Positions 35,373 to 44,108 of a stretch of DNA of 64,000 nt are shown in pieces (within the stretch, counting starts at the first letter, position 1; every line of letters begins with the position of its first letter). The notes under the pieces were generated by a model, which did not search any database, had not been told where the DNA came from, and saw only the letters and a list, made by a program, of their open reading frames with translations. Made by a program: the position numbers and the translations under genes. The DNA comes from Alloprevotella sp. GTDB lineage: Bacteria > Bacteroidota > Bacteroidia > Bacteroidales > Bacteroidaceae. The stretch is from contig JBNMKQ010000001.1 in assembly GCA_050874425.1 (NCBI GenBank), positions 9,016-73,015 of the forward strand, in the 5' to 3' direction.

Positions 35373-35439
35373 TAGTCGTGTAAGAAAAGACTAATACATT
35401 GTGTTTAGCCTTTTTGTAGACTCTTAAATGATAAGAATA

Positions 35440-36156
35440 ATGAATACGAATAAAAATTCATACACAATAATTTATGCTGCGGTAATGGTCGTTATCGTTG
35501 CATTCTTGCTTGCCTTCGTTTCATCAGCGTTAAAGCCCACACAAGATCAGAATGTTGCACTTGATAAGAAAAAGCAAATCTTGGCAGCACTCAATATTCG
35601 TGGCTTGGAAAGTGCGAGTGACATCGAAGCAAAGTACAATGAGTATGTTGTAGCCGATATGATTGTAAAGGCAGATGGCTCAGTTGTAGCTGAAGGTAAG
35701 AATAAGGAAACTGACGGCTTTAAAGTAGAGAATAAGTCCATCTCTGCTGATTGTCTTCCCGTTTATGTTTGCAAGGTTAATAACGAAACGAAGTATCTTG
35801 TTCCGATGACGGGACGCGGTCTTTGGGGTGGCCTTTGGGGCTATATGGCTATTAACGCTGATTTGCAAACAGTTTATGGCGCATACTTCTCGCATGAGAG
35901 CGAAACGGCGGGCCTTGGTGCTTTAATTGCTGAAGAGAAATTCCAAGATCAATTTAAGGGCAAACACCTTTTTGCTGCTGATGATGCGCAAAATGTAGCT
36001 CTTACAGTTGTAAAGAACGGTAAGGTTGAGCCTGGAAAGGAAAATACACAAGTTGATGGCATTACAGGTGCTACGCTCACGTCAAATGGTGTAGCCAATA
36101 TGGTGCATGACGGCTTACAACAATATTTAGGCTACTTTCAAACGCTTAATAAATAA
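35440..36156 (+). CDS. nqrC: Na+-NQR subunit C
   Basis: GRGLWGGLWG, HESETAGLG, VDGITGATLTSNGV (FMN Thr). Confidence 0.95.
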   Translation: MNTNKNSYTIIYAAVMVVIVAFLLAFVSSALKPTQDQNVALDKKKQILAALNIRGLESASDIEAKYNEYVVADMIVKADGSVVAEGKNKETDGFKVENKSISADCLPVYVCKVNNETKYLVPMTGRGLWGGLWGYMAINADLQTVYGAYFSHESETAGLGALIAEEKFQDQFKGKHLFAADDAQNVALTVVKNGKVEPGKENTQVDGITGATLTSNGVANMVHDGLQQYLGYFQTLNK

Positions 36157-36243
36157 TTTTGAAAAAGGATAATCATCATTGCCAAACATTAAAGCGGCAA
36201 TTATGGTTGCTCTTATAATAATCATTTAAACACTCTTTATAAA

Positions 36244-36885
36244 ATGAGTTTGTTTTCAAAAGAAAATAGAGAAGCACTTACGGGGCCTTTAAACTTGAAT
36301 AACCCAGTGGCAGTTCAGGTGTTAGGTATCTGTTCTGCTTTAGCCGTCACTTCGCAGCTTGAACCTGCTATTGTGATGGGGCTTTCGGTTACGGTTATTA
36401 CAGCCTTTTCGAATGTTATAATATCATTGCTTCGCAAGACAATCCCAAGCCGCATTCGTATTATTGTGCAGTTGGTTGTAGTCGCAACGTTGGTAACCTT
36501 AGTGTCGCAGGTATTAAAGGCATTTGCCTACGATGTTAGCGTACAATTGTCCGTTTATGTAGGTTTGATTATTACGAACTGTATCTTGATGGGCCGTCTT
36601 GAGGCTTTTGCCATGATGAATGGCCCTTGGGAATCATTCCTTGATGGTATAGGTAATGGTTTGGGCTATGCATGGGTGCTTGTGGCAGTAGGTTTTGTTC
36701 GCGAACTTTTTGGCAGCGGAACGTTGCTTGGCTTGCGCGTTATTCCCGAAAGTATCTATGCTTCAAACGGAGGTTTCTACGTAAACAACGGTATGATGAC
36801 AATGCCTGCAATGGCGCTTATATTGCTTGGATGCCTTATTTGGGCGCATCGTGCTTATAACGAGCGTGAAACAAAAAAGAAGTAA
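36244..36885 (+). CDS. nqrD: Na+-NQR subunit D
   Basis: NNPVAVQVLGICSALAVT, YVGLIITNCILMGRLEAFA. Confidence 0.96.
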   Translation: MSLFSKENREALTGPLNLNNPVAVQVLGICSALAVTSQLEPAIVMGLSVTVITAFSNVIISLLRKTIPSRIRIIVQLVVVATLVTLVSQVLKAFAYDVSVQLSVYVGLIITNCILMGRLEAFAMMNGPWESFLDGIGNGLGYAWVLVAVGFVRELFGSGTLLGLRVIPESIYASNGGFYVNNGMMTMPAMALILLGCLIWAHRAYNERETKKK

Positions 36886-36938
36886 TAAAAAACGATTAAG
36901 GGTGTATTGCTTATGCCCTTAGCTATAAAGAAAAAACA

Positions 36939-37565
36939 ATGGAACATTTGTTAAGTCTGTTCGTCCGCTCTATATTTGTGGACAATATGATATTTGCTTT
37001 CTTCTTGGGAATGTGTTCATATTTGGCCGTTTCGAAGAACGTAAAGACAGCGCTCGGACTTGGTGTGGCCGTTATCTTTGTGTTGATAATTACCGTGCCT
37101 GTTGATTATTTGTTACAAACAAAGGTGTTAGGTCCTGATTGTATAATGCCAGGTGTAGATTTGTCATTCCTATCATTCATTCTGTTTATTGCAGTTATTG
37201 CAGGTATCGTGCAGTTGGTTGAAATGGTAGTAGAACGTTTTTCACCATCACTCTACGCAGCTTTGGGTATATTCTTACCGCTAATCGCTGTAAACTGTGC
37301 CATTATGGGTGCTAGCCTTTTTATGCAACAACGTATTGGCATGGAGCCAGGTAGTACACAATACATCGGCAATGTGGCTGATGCTTTTGTTTACGCATTA
37401 GGTTCAGGTATTGGTTGGTTATTAGCGATTGTAGCTTTAGCTGCTATTCGTGAAAAGATGGCTTATACCGATGTGCCCAAGCCGCTTCAAGGATTAGGCA
37501 TCACATTTATTACTGTAGGACTCATGGCTATGGCTTTTATGTGCTTCTCAGGTTTGAATATTTAA
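36939..37565 (+). CDS. nqrE: Na+-NQR subunit E
   Basis: [38 protein letters not shown]. Confidence 0.96.
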
Positions 37566-37581
37566 TCACGGCAAGGAAACA

Positions 37582-38850
37582 ATGGATTTGAATTTAATTT
37601 TATCAAGTATCGGAGTATTCTTGGTGATTATACTCCTGTTAGTAGTCATACTGCTCGTGGCAAAGAAGTATCTTTCGCCAAGCGGTAAGGTTACTATAAC
37701 GATTAATGGCAAGGATAAGGTCGAGGTAGAGCAGGGCGCAAGCTTGTTGACTACACTCTCAGATAATGGTATCTATTTGCCTTCAGCGTGTGGTGGTAAG
37801 GGCTCTTGCGGTCAGTGCAAGTGTCAAGTACCTGAAGGCGGTGGTGAAATCCTTGATTCAGAAAAGGGCCACTTTACTCGCAAACAAATTAAGGAACACT
37901 ATCGTTTAGGTTGCCAATGCAAAGTTAAAGGCGACCTTTCAGTACAAGTGCCTGATAGCGTATTGGGTGTTAAGGAGTACGAGTGTACAGTTATTTCAAA
38001 CAAGAACGTAGCTACCTTTATCAAAGAGTTTAAGGTGCAGTTGCCAGCAGGTGCTCATATGGACTTCTTGCCTGGTTCGTATGCTCAGATTAAGATTCCT
38101 GCATTTAGCATGGATTATGATAAGGACATTGACAAGAGCCTTATTGGTGAGGAGTATTTGCCTGCATGGCAGAAGTTTGGCCTTTTCCCCTTGAAGTGTG
38201 TAAACACGCAGCCAACCGTTCGTGCTTACTCAATGGCCAATTATCCTGCTGAGGGTGATGTGTTCATGTTGACAGTTCGTATTGCGACACCTCCTTTCAA
38301 GGCTGATCGTAGTGGCTTTATGGATGTTAATCCTGGTATTGCTTCTTCATACATCTTTACGCTCAAACCGGGTGATAAGGTTATTATGAGTGGTCCTTAT
38401 GGCGATTTCCACCCACACTTCGATTCAAAGAAGGAGATGATTTGGGTTGGCGGTGGTGCAGGTATGGCTCCGTTACGTGCCCAAATTATGCACATGACGC
38501 GTACTTTGCATACAACTGATCGTGAAATGCACTACTTCTATGGTGCACGTGCATTGAATGAAGTGTTCTATTTGCAAGACTTTTTGCAGTTGGAGAAAGA
38601 CTTCCCCAACTTCCACTTCCACCTTGCCCTCGACCGTCCCGACCCCGCAGCCGATGCAGCAGGCGTGAAGTATACTGCAGGCTTCGTACACCAAGTAATG
38701 TATAATACTTATTTGAAAGACCACGATGCTCCTGAGGATATTGAATACTATATGTGTGGTCCTGGTCCTATGTCAAAAGCTGTTGTCGGAATGTTGGACA
38801 GCTTAGGTGTAGAACCCGAAAGCATTATGTATGATAACTTCGGCGGATAG
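37582..38850 (+). CDS. nqrF: Na+-NQR subunit F
   Basis: 2Fe-2S motif SACGGKGSCGQC..RLGCQC, RAYSMAN, GGGAGMAP, YYMCGP, DNFGG C-terminus. Confidence 0.97.
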   Translation: MDLNLILSSIGVFLVIILLLVVILLVAKKYLSPSGKVTITINGKDKVEVEQGASLLTTLSDNGIYLPSACGGKGSCGQCKCQVPEGGGEILDSEKGHFTRKQIKEHYRLGCQCKVKGDLSVQVPDSVLGVKEYECTVISNKNVATFIKEFKVQLPAGAHMDFLPGSYAQIKIPAFSMDYDKDIDKSLIGEEYLPAWQKFGLFPLKCVNTQPTVRAYSMANYPAEGDVFMLTVRIATPPFKADRSGFMDVNPGIASSYIFTLKPGDKVIMSGPYGDFHPHFDSKKEMIWVGGGAGMAPLRAQIMHMTRTLHTTDREMHYFYGARALNEVFYLQDFLQLEKDFPNFHFHLALDRPDPAADAAGVKYTAGFVHQVMYNTYLKDHDAPEDIEYYMCGPGPMSKAVVGMLDSLGVEPESIMYDNFGG

Positions 38851-38923
38851 CCGGTAACGTAAATTTGAATACTTACATATTAAGAGAGGCGTAAGCATAA
38901 CTGTACGACCTCTCTTATCAAAC

Positions 38924-38958
38924 GAAGTAAAGCCACTGCATATCAGTGGCTTTATTTC
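38924..38958 (+). terminator. Intrinsic terminator after nqrF (a second hairpin lies at 38881-38917)
   Basis: GAAGTAAAGCCACTG CATAT CAGTGGCTTTATTTC. Confidence 0.75.
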
Positions 38959-38992
38959 GTAATGTAGCATTGTAAGAGAAACAAGAAAAAAT

Positions 38993-39379
38993 ATGAAAGA
39001 GTTAACAGCAGGATATGAAGTAATAAAGTTCAAGGGGCAAACGAAGCGTTTTTGCCAAACGCTTGATTTACGCGATGATCCTCAGCTCATTGCTTCGTAC
39101 AAGCAATTGCATTCACAGTCGGGCATTTGGCCAGAGATACTTGAAGGAATAAGAAAGGCGGGAGTGCTTGAAATGGAAATATACCTTTTAGGTACACGTT
39201 TATTTATGATAGTAGAATTGCCGATTGATGCAGAGTGGAGCGATGTAATGCAACGCATGTCTTCTTATCCCCGTCAGGCTGAATGGGAAGAGTTAACAGC
39301 TCGCTATCAAAAGGCCGAGGCGCATGCAGCGTCAGCTGATAAGTGGAAACTTATGGAACGTATATTCCATTTGTATTGA
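38993..39379 (+). CDS. L-rhamnose mutarotase family protein
   Basis: KRFCQTLDLRDDPQLIASYKQLH, IWPEILEGIRKAGVLEMEIY, QAEWEE, KWKLMERIF. Confidence 0.85.
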   Translation: MKELTAGYEVIKFKGQTKRFCQTLDLRDDPQLIASYKQLHSQSGIWPEILEGIRKAGVLEMEIYLLGTRLFMIVELPIDAEWSDVMQRMSSYPRQAEWEELTARYQKAEAHAASADKWKLMERIFHLY

Positions 39380-39629
39380 TATTTATAGTTGTTTTATTCG
39401 AACCTCATCATTTGCTTTTTTACTTGAAATAAATAGTGTGGTGATACTAAAAAAACTAAAAGGATAAAGAAATCTACAAATAGTGTTGCAGTTTAGTGTA
39501 TTTTTCTGCAACTTTGCGTTACAATTTGTGCTTGCATATGTTCAAACACCTTTTGCATCATAAAAGGAGCGGTGTGTGAAGTAGGCACTTTTTGTTAGTT
39601 TCGACATCTAATTTACATTTACACTTTCT

Positions 39630-41138
39630 ATGAAAAAAAACAAACTCTTTGTTTCGTTGTTGGCAGCAGGTATGCTTGCCATTTCGCCTGCTATGGCAGA
39701 CGATGTGGTGAAGATTACCACCAACAAGCAGGCAGGCGAGACTGTTACGCTACAGGTTAATCAACTTGGTAGCGGTTCGACTGTAGATTGGGGTAATGGT
39801 CCTGTTGAAGTTACTGCAACAGATGAAGACCAACTCACTCTAACAGGTGAACTTGCTGGTTCAACAATCACTATTAGTGCTACCTCAAAGTTGCGCACAC
39901 TTATATGTGATGGTATTGGTGCAACAGCAATTGACCTCACTGGCGCTCCCAACTTGATGTCACTTTACTGCCAAAATAATGAGATTACTTCATTAGACTT
40001 GTCAGCATGTAATGCTTTGACTGACTTGAACTGCGAAAATAATGCTTTAAGTCGTTTGACCATTTCAGCTTCAAAAAATGCAAATTTGCAAAATTTGAAC
40101 ATTGCTGGTAACCAACTTACTTCGTCATTCTCATTCTCAGGCGCAGATTTGCAACACCTCAATGTTAGCAAAAATGCTATTACAGGATTAACGCTTTCGT
40201 CAAACACAAAGTTGGACGTTGTGAAGTGTACGGAGAATGCTCTGACTTCGCTTACAGTCAATGCTCCTTCGCTCTCAGCCATTATGTGTGGCGATAATAA
40301 GCTTACATCACTCTCAATTGGTGGTGAAGTGTCAGGCTTGCGTCAAGTATTTGCTGAAAATAACAAAATCGGTAGCCTAAACGTATCAAAAGCTACTGGT
40401 TTGAAGTACATTGCAGTTGAAAATAATGCACTTACTACGGTTACTTTGCCCGAAAGCAGCGTGCTTTATGCTATGACTTGTCAAAACAATATGTTGACAT
40501 ACAAGTCGTTGCCTGCAAAACGTGCTATTACAAATATTACGTATTTGCCTCAAGATAATTCAAGTCAGACCATAGATATTAAGGGTAAACTGAACAATAA
40601 GCGCATTGACGGCACACGTTATTATTATTTGATTAAGGGCTCAAAGACAGAATTGCGTGCAGCAGAATTACCTTATGTGCTTGATATGAGAGATTACACA
40701 GATGGTGTTTCTGTCAACTTTGTGAATGAAAGTGGTAATAAAGTTGCTAGCGACGACATTATTACTATTAACAACTCAAAGTATGCAGGATACATTGTGT
40801 TTGCAAATGCTCAAGAAGAGCCTATAATGGGTCAAATCGTTCCGACTTACTATCCAGAGTTGGTAATAAACACTTCACCTTCGTTCTATGTTGTAGAATC
40901 AGAAGAAGACCTCGTTAATCGTGTAACTGCTGGCATCAATGATATTACCGTTGGTAAAAATGCTTTGGGTGTAAATGGTGCACATGGCGTACTGACCCTC
41001 GCTTCTGAGGCTTCAACTCCTGTCAAGGTATATACCAGCGCCGGCCAATTAGTATGGCAAGGTAATGTACAAGGAACAACTACGGTAAACCTTTCAACGG
41101 GTGTTTATATCGTAAATGGTAAGAAGGTTGTTCTCTAA
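39630..41138 (+). CDS. Leucine-rich repeat protein with a T9SS type A C-terminal sorting domain
   Basis: Signal peptide ending AMA-D, about 10 LxxLxCxxNxLxxL repeats (for example LTDLNCENNALSRL), C-terminus GINDI..VKVYTSAGQLV..GVYIVNGKKVVL. Confidence 0.88.
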   Translation: MKKNKLFVSLLAAGMLAISPAMADDVVKITTNKQAGETVTLQVNQLGSGSTVDWGNGPVEVTATDEDQLTLTGELAGSTITISATSKLRTLICDGIGATAIDLTGAPNLMSLYCQNNEITSLDLSACNALTDLNCENNALSRLTISASKNANLQNLNIAGNQLTSSFSFSGADLQHLNVSKNAITGLTLSSNTKLDVVKCTENALTSLTVNAPSLSAIMCGDNKLTSLSIGGEVSGLRQVFAENNKIGSLNVSKATGLKYIAVENNALTTVTLPESSVLYAMTCQNNMLTYKSLPAKRAITNITYLPQDNSSQTIDIKGKLNNKRIDGTRYYYLIKGSKTELRAAELPYVLDMRDYTDGVSVNFVNESGNKVASDDIITINNSKYAGYIVFANAQEEPIMGQIVPTYYPELVINTSPSFYVVESEEDLVNRVTAGINDITVGKNALGVNGAHGVLTLASEASTPVKVYTSAGQLVWQGNVQGTTTVNLSTGVYIVNGKKVVL

Positions 41139-41177
41139 GCAAACTACTTAATTACAAGATATTAAAAAGAATAATCA

Positions 41178-43901
41178 ATGAATTACATAAAGCAAATGCT
41201 CGCTTGTGTAGCATTGGCAGCTGGTACAGCATACCAACCGCTTATGGCACAAGTGAAATTGTCGGGCGAAGCATTCCCTGTTATTGTAGCTCCCCACGCT
41301 CAGTCGGTAAGCTACTATGAACGCACGCTTTGCTATGACATTACTTCAAATGTAGACTATACTGCTACGTCAGATGCTGATTGGGTAAGCGTTCGCAAGG
41401 CCGATAATGGTACTGTTTACGTTCATGTACAATACAACAAGTTGGGCGAAGAACGTACGGCTCATGTCGTTTTTGCTAATGCCGAAAATAATTTGAGTGA
41501 AACACTCACCATTACGCAAAGCCGTAATGAGTCATTTAAGGAATTGCCTAAGGATGTTCAGGTTAGCGTCGCTTCAGCAACGGCTAATACCACAAACTCA
41601 GGTTATGGTATAGAGAAAACCTACGATAACAATGAGTCAACCTTCTGGCACAGCCAGTGGAATCCCTCAAACTTCGTGGTTTCTAAAGAGAATCCTGCCA
41701 TTCTTACTTACAACTTCAACAATGTTGACCATATTGACTACATAGAGTATGTAACTCGTCAAGATGGCAATTCAAATGGTAACTTTGGTGAGGTTGAGGT
41801 TTATGCAAAGTGTGGTAGTGAGACTGCTTACACACTAATTTCAACTGTAGACTTGGGCCATGCCGGTGGCCTTATTACTTTGGGAGCCACGGGATTAGAC
41901 GATGTTAAGTCTATTCAACTAAAGGTATTGAGTGGTGCTAACAATAATGCTTCATGTGCAGAAATGCGCTTTATGAAGTATAATAGCGAGGCAACTGACT
42001 ATAATGCATTATTTACGGATGCATCAATGTCGGCTTTGAAAGAAGGCGTAACAAAGGAACAAATTGAAACCATTAAGTACGACTTTATTCGCGACCTCGC
42101 ACTTGGCCTCTTAGACAAGTCTTACGATAAGAACTATCGCGTAGGCGAATATACTGCTAAACTTTCTTACGTTACCCAAAGTAACATTTGGAATGCTCCT
42201 GGTAAGTACTATGACCAACGTCAAGGCGTTACGGGTATTAACATCTCAAAGGGTCAGCATGCTATTGCTGTTTCAGGCTTGCCTGATGGAAAAAACGTGC
42301 CAATGATTGTTACGGCTTGGTATGTAGGTAAGGATGGCGAAAACTTCAAAGGTGGTAATCCTCAAAGCTTTAGCTACTCTTTACACAATGGCTTGAACAT
42401 CATCAACTATAACTATGACTTCGATGGATTAGCCTACGTTTGCTATTATGCTGATGCTAATCCAGAGTTGCAGCCTAAGTTGACGGTTCACTTCATTAAT
42501 GGTGACGTAAATGGTTACCTCTCTTCAGACAAAACGAATGATGAGATGCATGAACTTACTGCGAAGGCTAAGAACGTATGTATGGACGTGTTAGGCACAA
42601 AGGTCCACTCTGTATGGACATCACAAGGCTTGCATGATTATTGCAAGGCAACAGATGGAACATCTATTGGTTACCGTCAGTATATGAACGTACTCGACTC
42701 GCTCATTCAGTGGGAGCATGATTTGTTAGGTTTCAAGAAGTATAACAGCGAACCTGATAATCGTACCATGGCTTATACCAACTACACTTACTACATGTTC
42801 CAAGGTGGCTTTGGTGTATCATTCCATCATGATCAAGAGTATCGTGTGTTGAATTGCAAGAGAATTGTTTATAATGACAATGACGCTATTTGGGGCCTCT
42901 CACACGAGTGGGGTCATCAACACCAAATGCACCCCTACTTCTGTTGGGCTGGTATGAGTGAAGTTACTAATAACATGAACTCATATTACAACATTATGAA
43001 GATGGGCTATCACACAAGTGATAAGATCAATGCTTGGCCGACAGCTCGTAAGCACTTTATTCAGGACAATATTAACGACATTGAAGTAAGTGGTCCTGTT
43101 GCGCTTGTAAAAGATGGTGGTGGTAGATACGATGTAGGTAAAGGTAGTATGGTGAAAGGTCGTCGTTTTAGTCGTACCCGTCGTTTGGCCTACTTGAACA
43201 AGAACTTTATGACAAACGCTGCTTTACGTCAGATTTGTGAGAGTATGTCAGACTCAACTGTAACCACTTATGCTAAGGACCCAGCTCATGCATTACACAT
43301 CAGTGAAGTAGGCGTAGGGGAAACCCTTTGTCCCTTCATCATGTTGTTCAACTACTTTACAACTCACGGCAAACCCGACTTTGCTCCCGATTGGTATGAA
43401 GCACTTCGTCAGACAGATGATGTTAATGGTGGCTCATCAATCGAAAAGGCTAAGGGCTTTGACAAGTACGAGTTGGTAGCAGCAGCTCAGAATAATAATA
43501 AGAATGACCTTTACAGTAAGTTGGTTGAACTCTATCCCAACTCTTGCTGGGTGAAGAGCGGCTATGTAACGCGCAATAGTACGCAATGGGAAAATTCAAT
43601 GCCTTATGTACTTAACTACATTCGCAAGACTTCTCGTCTTTCAGGTTACAACCTCTTGCCTTACTTTGATCATTGGGGCTTCCTCCGCCAAGTTGCACTC
43701 TACATTGGCGACTATGGTAACAAGTGGCAATGCTTCAACAAGGAAATGTACGATGAGTTCAAGGCCGATATGGATGCTCTTGTAGCAGATGGTACTTTGA
43801 AAGAAATGCCAGAAGGCATGGTAGAAGAGATTTCAAATACTGTTGATCTCTTTGACTCAGGTTACCAAAACTTTGGTACGACTCCCACTTTTCCTAACTA
43901 A
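41178..43901 (+). CDS. M60-like zinc metallopeptidase (BACON - CBM32/discoidin - M60)
   Basis: Signal peptide ending LMA-Q, BACON SDADWVSV..N..GEERTA..LTITQ, discoidin KTYDNNESTFWHSQW..CAEMRF, gluzincin motif SHEWGHQHQ..EVTNN. Confidence 0.9.
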   Translation: MNYIKQMLACVALAAGTAYQPLMAQVKLSGEAFPVIVAPHAQSVSYYERTLCYDITSNVDYTATSDADWVSVRKADNGTVYVHVQYNKLGEERTAHVVFANAENNLSETLTITQSRNESFKELPKDVQVSVASATANTTNSGYGIEKTYDNNESTFWHSQWNPSNFVVSKENPAILTYNFNNVDHIDYIEYVTRQDGNSNGNFGEVEVYAKCGSETAYTLISTVDLGHAGGLITLGATGLDDVKSIQLKVLSGANNNASCAEMRFMKYNSEATDYNALFTDASMSALKEGVTKEQIETIKYDFIRDLALGLLDKSYDKNYRVGEYTAKLSYVTQSNIWNAPGKYYDQRQGVTGINISKGQHAIAVSGLPDGKNVPMIVTAWYVGKDGENFKGGNPQSFSYSLHNGLNIINYNYDFDGLAYVCYYADANPELQPKLTVHFINGDVNGYLSSDKTNDEMHELTAKAKNVCMDVLGTKVHSVWTSQGLHDYCKATDGTSIGYRQYMNVLDSLIQWEHDLLGFKKYNSEPDNRTMAYTNYTYYMFQGGFGVSFHHDQEYRVLNCKRIVYNDNDAIWGLSHEWGHQHQMHPYFCWAGMSEVTNNMNSYYNIMKMGYHTSDKINAWPTARKHFIQDNINDIEVSGPVALVKDGGGRYDVGKGSMVKGRRFSRTRRLAYLNKNFMTNAALRQICESMSDSTVTTYAKDPAHALHISEVGVGETLCPFIMLFNYFTTHGKPDFAPDWYEALRQTDDVNGGSSIEKAKGFDKYELVAAAQNNNKNDLYSKLVELYPNSCWVKSGYVTRNSTQWENSMPYVLNYIRKTSRLSGYNLLPYFDHWGFLRQVALYIGDYGNKWQCFNKEMYDEFKADMDALVADGTLKEMPEGMVEEISNTVDLFDSGYQNFGTTPTFPN

Positions 43902-43920
43902 TAGGAAGAGGTAATATAAA

Positions 43921-43960
43921 AAAACATCCGCATAATCATTAACGATTATGCGGATGTTTT
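43921..43960 (+). terminator. Intrinsic terminator closing the LRR-M60 unit
   Basis: AAAACATCCGCATAATC ATTAAC GATTATGCGGATGTTTT, perfect arms followed by Ts. Confidence 0.88.
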
Positions 43961-44108
43961 TTCTGTATACTATCCGCCAGTGCGCTATCTTAATTGCATC
44001 ATGATAGAAATTAGAAAGCTTGAAGTTTATGTTTGGGTCTGAATTATGTTAACTTTATGCTTGATAGGTACTTTTATTATTCAAGTTTTGGATTTAGACA
44101 AATTGCAG

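Follow-up and report, generated by a model that had tools for sequence, protein, structure and literature searches.

Gene layout

We studied a 64,000-nucleotide stretch of DNA from an Alloprevotella sp. (GenBank assembly GCA_050874425.1, contig JBNMKQ010000001.1, positions 9,016 to 73,015 of the forward strand), referred to below as the window, and concentrated on two neighboring genes within it, whose features are collected in Table 1. One encodes a leucine-rich repeat (LRR) protein that ends in a predicted type IX secretion system (T9SS) C-terminal domain (CTD), and the other encodes an M60-type O-glycopeptidase in which no such domain was found. An interpretation made earlier from the letters alone (the sequence-only reading) had described an LRR gene and an M60 gene 39 bp apart, closed by one strong terminator, and had suggested that the LRR protein carries the peptidase through the T9SS or tethers it to the cell surface. 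The layout was borne out in full. The two open reading frames (ORFs) are in the same frame with three TAA codons between them, and the unit ends in a single hairpin with a dG of -26.6 kcal/mol (z = -10; 0/200 shuffles were equally stable), which a simple terminator scan did not pick up. Having an A-tract as well as a U-tract, this terminator could be bidirectional. Because the 39-bp gap before the M60 gene contains no -7-type box and nothing else that is promoter-like or terminator-like, the two genes are likely co-transcribed. A possible promoter box for the pair lies ∼100 nt 5' of the LRR start codon and is one base longer than TAnnTTTG, of which there is no exact copy in 39301-41300.

Table 1. 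Features of the LRR-M60 unit in window coordinates, and locus coordinates of the alternative partner (aa, amino acids; SPI, signal peptidase I; AF2, AlphaFold2; pLDDT, predicted local distance difference test)
Feature	Position	Strand	Basis or remark
Possible Bacteroidota-type -7 promoter box, TACAATTTG	39520..39528	+	read from sequence
LRR-CTD partner gene	39630..41138	+	ORF, 502 aa
LRR protein, predicted Sec (SPI) signal, aa 1-24, cleavage AMA↓DD	39630..39701	+	read from sequence
LRR protein, N-terminal beta-sandwich cap, aa 25-85, VDWG(D/N)G motif	39702..39884	+	AF2 strands 25-84
LRR protein, LRR solenoid, aa 90-295	39897..40514	+	∼10 repeats of 21-22 residues, Cys/Asn ladder
LRR protein, beta-rich domain, aa 300-422	40527..40895	+	AF2 pLDDT 87-95
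LRR protein, predicted T9SS type A CTD, aa 437-502	40938..41135	+	motifs, TIGR04183, profile-profile comparison
Intergenic spacer, 39 bp	41139..41177	+	no terminator or promoter-like box
CTD-less M60 O-glycopeptidase gene	41178..43901	+	ORF, 907 aa; Pfam, AF2, fold comparison
M60, predicted SPI signal, aa 1-24, cleavage PLMA↓QV, Gln at +1	41178..41249	+	read from sequence
M60, BACON domain, aa ∼35-115	41280..41522	+	PF13004, 38 bits; AF2 strands 41-114
M60, CBM32 / F5-F8 type C galactose-binding-like module, aa ∼125-268	41550..41981	+	PF00754, 29 bits
M60, N-domain and catalytic domain, aa 277-632	42006..43073	+	PF13402
M60, zinc site, HEWGH aa 576-580 and Glu595	42903-42917 and 42960-42962	+	HEXXH...E motif
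M60, subfamily-specific helical C-terminal region, aa 633-907	43074..43898	+	homology, AF2
Intrinsic terminator, end of two-gene unit	43919..43962	+	19-bp stem, A-tract before, U-tract after
Alternative partner family (other genomes)	L087:4001-5743, L089:3511-5265, L092:5457-7217, L090:4693-6213, L095-L099		

The LRR protein and its C-terminal tag

The LRR protein matches Pfam LRR_4 (42 bits), and its AF2 model, built from an alignment of 66 orthologues, reached a pLDDT of 91.4 and a predicted template modeling score of 0.76. In this model the signal shows a helix at residues 7-14 with low pLDDT over residues 1-20, and the orthologues have ...A↓QD at the junction. The cap is the best-conserved part outside the repeats, with W54 and G55 invariant across the 66 orthologues, as are the solenoid asparagines 117, 138, 161, 203, and 287. 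Listeria InlJ, a cysteine-ladder LRR protein (PDB 3bz5), was the top match both by sequence and by fold. The NCBIfam model NF033187 (internalin_J) matched 66/66 orthologues well under its equivalog cut-off, which at the sequence level shows a resemblance of repeat type and not orthology. The beta-rich domain (aa 300-422) had no Pfam or NCBIfam match, and in the AF2 model a flexible linker (aa 436-443) precedes a small beta domain (aa 447-501). The gene is single copy, with no paralogue in this genome.

The sequence-only reading had assigned a Sec signal and a type A T9SS CTD to this protein. Consistent with that assignment, the tail shows a cleavage site, VTA↓GIND (TA↓GI), and motifs B (VKVYTSAG), D (GVYIV), and E (NGKKVVL), with G472, G491, Y493, and K499 conserved among orthologues; experiments on Prevotella intermedia have defined the corresponding motifs (cleavage site (P)T/GI, B Y..G, D GxY-I, E K/R; Ye et al. 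2025, PMC11969387). The TIGR04183 model gave a divided answer for the window protein, scoring 19.1 bits with hmmscan, under the cut-off of 23, and 23.9 bits in a six-frame search of the genome, over it. At E < 0.01, TIGR04183 was found in 26 and DUF6383 in 14 of the 66 orthologues. Profile-profile comparison was clear, as the profile of the orthologue tails aligned with that of 16 CTDs of this genome at an hhalign probability of 99% (E = 8.9e-18, 70 columns). Every readable LRR orthologue ends in a CTD. The genome itself encodes the SprA translocon (2718 bits) and a set of CTD proteins (22 matches, at least 17 of them over the cut-off). We conclude that, by motif and profile, the LRR protein appears to be a genuine T9SS type A CTD cargo.

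The CTDs of the LRR orthologues come in two lengths within one family. The long form, to which the window protein belongs, has ∼66 aa, and the short one has ∼40 aa with the pattern ...E/GI...YDLQGRRV...G.YI.NGKKV..K. Length variants were seen in L036, L042, L044, L051-L054, L062, L064, L070, L071, L074, and L078, and the two forms agree with a division into short and long CTDs that has been reported for Prevotella intermedia.

The M60 peptidase and its C terminus

The second protein has the architecture BACON-CBM32-M60. Its PF13402 (Peptidase_M60) match scored 56.8 bits against a cut-off of 25.8 (47.8 bits in the six-frame genome search), the zinc-site residues H576, E577, H580, and E595 are invariant in 65 orthologues, and the AF2 model has a pLDDT of 88.7. 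Compared with Akkermansia muciniphila AM0627 (PDB 7sci), it gave E = 4.6e-42 at 22% identity by sequence and a Foldseek E = 9e-33 (TMt 0.86) by fold; the Foldseek value against BT4244 was E = 1.7e-23. The CBM32 module matched a CBM32 of B. thetaiotaomicron (PDB 7blg) with E = 3.6e-17 by sequence and a TM of 0.86 by fold. Judged by profile, motif, and predicted fold, this is a regular M60 O-glycopeptidase. The only poorly modeled stretch of the mature protein is a variable basic loop (...KGRRFSRTRR..., aa 630-665, window 43065-43172; pLDDT 52-67), which is inserted relative to AM0627.

For the peptidase, the sequence-only reading had described a cleavable signal (LMA-Q), the end FGTTPTFPN, and neither a CTD nor a convincing lipobox, all of which we found as well. 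The predicted signal has a pLDDT below 50 over residues 1-26 and an h-region, VALAAGTAY, after Cys10, and nearly all of the ∼200 homologues compared share the x-A↓Q junction. In-frame TAA codons at 41163 and 41172 make the ATG at 41178 the first possible start, and because these upstream stops leave just nine residues ahead of Cys10, this residue cannot be a lipobox cysteine. It is also not conserved among the ∼200 homologues, and a crude lipobox rule was passed by 1/78 orthologues, so a lipoprotein, which had been named as an outcome that would undo the proposal, is not what the sequence predicts. The same holds for a cryptic CTD, which we rejected. No TIGR04183, PF18962, or CHU_C match was found in the M60 with the NCBIfam and Pfam models, more than 120 homologues are likewise without a CTD, and AF2 models the C-terminal region as helix or coil in a packed arrangement, with no beta-sandwich.

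The end of the M60 is nevertheless strongly conserved over its last ∼45 residues, with P903 and N907 invariant. A P.[FIV].N tail motif occurs in 75/78 orthologues, and the remaining three are cut at contig ends. The last 45 residues are modeled as helix plus coil (pLDDT 86-93, tail 93). Because the C terminus is predicted to be packed, the conserved P-x-(F/I)-P-N end looks structural; some orthologues have 5-15 extra residues after it, and no other protein of this genome ends in the motif.

Co-inheritance of the two genes

We surveyed one genome per GTDB species and obtained 77 related loci from Prevotellamassilia, Alloprevotella, Paraprevotella, and unnamed Prevotellaceae. In 77/77, an LRR homologue lies directly upstream of the M60 gene on the same strand, with M60 identities of 46-92% and LRR identities of 25-90%, and all complete M60 orthologues are without a CTD. 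The gap is short (median 36 bp; ≤100 bp in 70/77 loci). Even LRR matches of ∼30% identity have an M60 gene after them, and M60s of 37-44% identity have an LRR gene before them. Clustering of the flanking ORFs showed that just these two genes are common to the loci, with no conserved third gene; the next commonest neighbor, a nagB-like gene, is present at 15/78. The pairing is far beyond chance.

The same pattern was seen in presence and absence. Among 61 genomes of the window's genus, both genes are adjacent in 47 and neither is present in 12; the other two are ambiguous (a contig-edge fragment and a paralogue), and none clearly holds one gene alone, which makes co-presence or co-absence perfect in the 59 informative genomes. 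In a family-wide sample of 151 genomes, a full-length LRR orthologue occurred in ∼9 genomes of three genera, and the unit is therefore a patchy accessory module. SprA was found in 14/14 sampled genomes that hold the pair. Pairwise identities of the LRR proteins and the M60s correlate across 65 pairs (r = 0.88), and the partners have therefore not been shuffled; of the two, the LRR protein evolves faster (37% identity on average, versus 53% for the M60).

The sequence-only reading had held that homologues lacking the LRR gene would count against it. Pairing stood at 77/77 loci, and the part that did not stand concerns one nested clade with a different CTD partner, described below. A dedicated functional coupling between the LRR and M60 genes is strongly supported by these sequence comparisons, because the M60 is predicted neither to be a lipoprotein nor to hide a CTD and because, that clade apart, its homologues in the surveyed loci were not found without the LRR gene.

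Several variants of the unit were seen in relatives. One LRR-CTD gene stands between two M60 paralogues in an M60-LRR-M60 form (L083:2254-9432; G203:C314:539-7625; G198:C55; G214:C44; G204:C99), and at least one genome has a second, paralogous LRR-M60 pair (G212:C32). A frameshift splits the LRR gene of one metagenome-assembled genome (MAG; L023:4374-5904) beside an intact M60 gene. The LRR gene is whole in the near-identical L021, L022, and L076, and the split copy could be either an assembly error or a recent pseudogene. The nagB-like gene, for a glucosamine-6-phosphate isomerase/deaminase, lies divergently upstream at its 15/78 loci (e.g., L031:3213-4004, minus strand, and its equivalents), and a radical-SAM/SPASM gene, possibly a sulfatase maturase, occupies the same place in nine loci. 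L080, L093, and L094 also belong to this set of loci, and in L094 a sulfatase adjoins the pair. As annotated from sequence, the nagB-like and radical-SAM neighbors are a recurrent, non-obligate mucin-sugar context.

A second type of partner and other M60 targeting solutions

One nested clade of M60s has no LRR gene. At 9/9 of its loci (4/4 from look-ups of the M60s and 5/5 found by querying the new partner), an unrelated protein of ∼580 aa is encoded 22-30 bp downstream of the M60. This alternative partner has an SPI signal in 9/9 and no firm Pfam assignment, its N terminus being weakly ricin-B-like. Where its 3' end is complete (seven loci), it finishes in a pre-CTD stalk and a canonical type A CTD (...YDLQGRRV...G.YIN...K..IR); in L090 and L098 the gene runs to the contig end, and the CTD is not readable. 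A maximum-likelihood tree of 96 M60s recovered the subfamily as monophyletic (support 100) with respect to lipoprotein-type M60s and placed the alternative-partner clade as a nested group among LRR-partnered lineages. Because of this nesting, the LRR partner looks ancestral and looks to have been replaced once.

The M60s of this clade end in ...PNDRP(L/I)..D(E/N), or in ...SNEPKTAQ in P0258 and L099. We considered the tail motif as a marker of partner type and dropped it, as it does not cleanly separate LRR-partnered from alternative-partnered M60s and NEP... extensions occur with the LRR partner too. We also made no use of an hhalign match (90%) between the alternative partner and the tail of a CTD-bearing M60, which covers the last ∼170 residues only and looks like a generic stalk plus CTD.

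Other Bacteroidota M60s reach for different devices. P0268, P0297, and the second M60 of this genome have their own CTD, and P0348, P0349, and P0373 have a lipobox. The second M60 lies outside the window (G000:C101:200-5074, plus strand); its 1625-aa ORF combines an M60 domain with an SPI signal, several beta-trefoil repeats of ricin-like type, and, after a pre-CTD stalk, a type A CTD ending in ...GIYIVNGKKTVVGF. With its own CTD on this enzyme, single-chain and split solutions are therefore found in one cell. As predicted from their signals, M60 targeting in Bacteroidota has three solutions, and the subfamily described here is the split one.

A candidate route to the cell surface and its rivals

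Our favored reading is that the CTD-bearing partner delivers or anchors the M60 at the cell surface via the T9SS, and we put its chances at about even. The two genes would then make up a self-contained operon encoding a surface mucinase in split form. The M60 would enter the periplasm by Sec and signal peptidase I and would have no outer-membrane targeting device of its own, while the type A CTD would take the LRR protein through the SprA translocon, after which PorU-type cleavage at TA↓GI would leave it glycan-anchored on the cell surface. We infer that the LRR protein binds the folded M60 in a physical complex. For the M60, two ways across the outer membrane to the surface would then be conceivable. 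It could be co-exported with the LRR protein as a periplasmic complex, or the glycan-anchored LRR protein could capture and hold it on the surface; either would display it where its presumed substrates, mucin glycoproteins, are. The T9SS is known to move folded proteins (PMC9251779). The co-export form, in which a folded, ∼100-kDa, CTD-less M60 would hitch-hike through SprA on a CTD-bearing carrier (the LRR protein or, in one clade, the ∼580-aa protein) as a non-covalent two-subunit mucinase, is a tentative proposal that we consider doubtful when taken by itself.

Several observations weigh against this delivery-or-anchoring model. The concave-face residues of the LRR protein are not notably conserved, and the conserved P-x-F-P-N end of the M60, which we had considered as a free docking or sorting peptide, is weakened as such by its predicted packing (pLDDT 93) and by being internal in some orthologues. 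Co-inheritance counts within one genus are phylogenetically non-independent. A distant M60, P0254, has no adjoining CTD partner on its 14-kb contig, and no natural LRR-M60 fusion was present among the best 150 matches when the read-through LRR plus M60 translation (P0241, TAA=Q) was searched with phmmer against 1.84 billion representatives. We found no precedent for T9SS hitch-hiking in the open-access literature searched. The partner swap fits an adhesin model too, because either type of partner could resemble a lectin or an adhesin, the alternative one by its weak ricin-B match.

That model, in which the genes are co-regulated and their products physically independent, is the rival that concerned us most, even if we consider it somewhat unlikely. 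The CTD partner would be a surface adhesin for mucin or a host glycoprotein, and the M60 would trim imported O-glycopeptides in the periplasm or in the lumen of outer membrane vesicles. Periplasmic Bacteroidota enzymes are usually marked by an SPI signal without CTD or lipobox, the two partner types have binding-type folds (LRR and a weak ricin-B beta-trefoil), the amino-sugar and sulfatase-maturation genes beside some loci indicate a mucin-foraging context, and extracellular CTD-less enzymes of other Bacteroidota have been attributed to vesicles (PMC6247017). Such a division of labor would, however, need an importer between the two proteins, and none of SusC/D or RagAB type is conserved alongside it. 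It would be unusual for a generic adhesin to be a dedicated, single-copy partner that is strictly adjacent 1:1 and lost together with its neighbor. BACON and CBM32 modules typify enzymes that come into contact with polymeric mucin, and the sister M60 families in the phylum are all surface-targeted. Thus, while the factual premises of the sequence-only reading and the coupling of the two genes held up, its interpretation that the LRR protein carries or tethers the M60 has to share most of the same data with an adhesin plus a periplasmic peptidase.

Two further explanations fared worse. The partner could be a chaperone or inhibitor that keeps the M60 inactive in the periplasm until a later release and so protects the cell's own O-glycoproteins. 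Many periplasmic proteins of Bacteroidota are O-glycosylated, LRR scaffolds can inhibit enzymes, as in ribonuclease inhibitor and the plant polygalacturonase-inhibiting proteins, and the protease-inhibitor gene pairs of Tannerella forsythia offer an analogy; the tight operon coupling and co-inheritance also fit such a role. An inhibitor would not need a T9SS CTD, yet one is kept in all LRR orthologues and in every 3'-complete alternative partner, and inhibition would have had to arise a second time in the alternative partner, which is unrelated. The LRR protein also has no D-(S/T)-(A/I/L/V/M/T) sequon, so it is no obvious substrate, and we regard an inhibitor as improbable. Slightly more remote still is an M60 that exits by an unrecognized signal of its own, for example in its helical C-terminal region, with the neighbor serving only as a surface adaptor that targets it to substrate. 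The strong conservation of the last ∼45 residues and of P-x-(F/I)-P-N would suit such a signal, and the CTDs of some T9SS cargo are covered by neither the type A nor the type B model. Against this, the region forms helices that pack on the catalytic body and is not a beta-sandwich; the motif is internal in some orthologues and unique to the M60 among the C termini of this genome, and none of the three CTD models matched.

Comparison with known systems

BT4244 of B. thetaiotaomicron (PDB 5KD2, 5KD5, 5KD8) shares the BACON-CBM32-M60 order, the HEXXH...E gluzincin site, and the fold with the window M60, and the two presumably act on the same kind of substrate, mucin-type O-glycoproteins. We take BT4244 to be a surface lipoprotein of an organism without a T9SS. 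The window M60 differs from it in having an SPI signal and no lipobox, in belonging to a separate subfamily (E = 1.8e-21 only), in its extra helical insertions (aa 633-711, 758-806, and 863-907), and in always being paired with a CTD-bearing neighbor. The closest solved structure to the catalytic part is that of AM0627 from Akkermansia muciniphila (PDB 7SCI, 7YX8), which has no BACON, CBM32, or subfamily insertions and comes from another phylum, with no T9SS and no LRR partner. The single-chain T9SS M60s (the second M60 of this genome, P0268, and P0297) occur in the same bacteria and likewise combine an M60 domain, carbohydrate-binding modules, and reliance on the T9SS; they have the CTD within the enzyme chain, whereas in the window unit it is on a separate polypeptide.

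The nearest parallel to the proposed export is hitch-hiking in the twin-arginine translocation (Tat) system, where, for example, hydrogenase small subunits carry signal-less large subunits (reviewed in PMC9251779). The logic is the same, in that a folded, signal-less protein is exported with a signal-bearing partner encoded next to it, but the machine, the membrane, and the signal differ from the T9SS case proposed here. SprB-SprF of Flavobacterium johnsoniae, a type B CTD cargo with a PorP/SprF-like gene, likewise has an adjacent partner dedicated to one cargo. There the CTD belongs to the cargo, which has an outer-membrane beta-barrel as its partner, whereas in the window the enzyme is CTD-less and the partner would be a soluble CTD cargo. 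Cohesin-dockerin cellulosomes and the gingipain-adhesin complexes of Porphyromonas gingivalis also hold enzymes non-covalently on an anchored scaffold, but none of the cohesin, dockerin, or gingipain adhesin domains is found in the window proteins, and the enzymes of those systems have export signals of their own. The parts of the unit are ordinary (a BT4244/AM0627-type M60, an InlJ-like LRR, and a type A CTD); their arrangement is not.

In gut and oral bacteria, M60 O-glycopeptidases are key enzymes for the degradation of mucin, and many Bacteroidota export proteins mainly through the T9SS, for which cargo prediction assumes that each cargo has its own CTD. In the unit described here, a dedicated partner, and not the enzyme, bears the secretion tag, and an unrelated CTD protein has taken the place of that partner in one clade with the logic kept. 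If the favored reading is right, this would be either a new use of the T9SS, in which a complex is exported as one, or a new way of anchoring at the surface. Hitch-hiking, if true, would be the first such case for the T9SS, and CTD-only secretome predictions would miss a class of passengers. In the open-access literature searched, we found no description of CTD-less passengers with dedicated CTD carriers or of the LRR-M60 module. The two-gene system would be simple and testable in strains that hold the pair and can be cultured, namely Prevotellamassilia timonensis Marseille-P2831, Alloprevotella rava DSM 22548, and Prevotella sp. MGM2. Even if the link proved to be mere co-regulation, mucin foraging in Prevotellaceae would have a marker in the LRR-M60 module, which is well defined, widespread, and unannotated.

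Flanking genes and database records

Upstream of the unit (window 35428-39379) lie nqrC, nqrD, nqrE, and nqrF, read from the sequence as subunits of the Na+-translocating NADH:quinone reductase, and a 128-aa L-rhamnose mutarotase-like (rhaM-like) gene (PF05336, 98 bits). Neither the nqr genes nor the rhaM-like gene is kept beside the LRR-M60 pair in other genomes. The next gene downstream, from 44833, encodes a large helicase/nuclease-type protein.

Six MAG records that contain the pair are titled Clostridiales, Oscillospiraceae, Lachnospiraceae, Oribacterium, Christensenella, or Clostridium (L004, L011, L013, L016, L041, and L043). All six fall among Prevotellaceae in the M60 tree, and their labels or bins look wrong.

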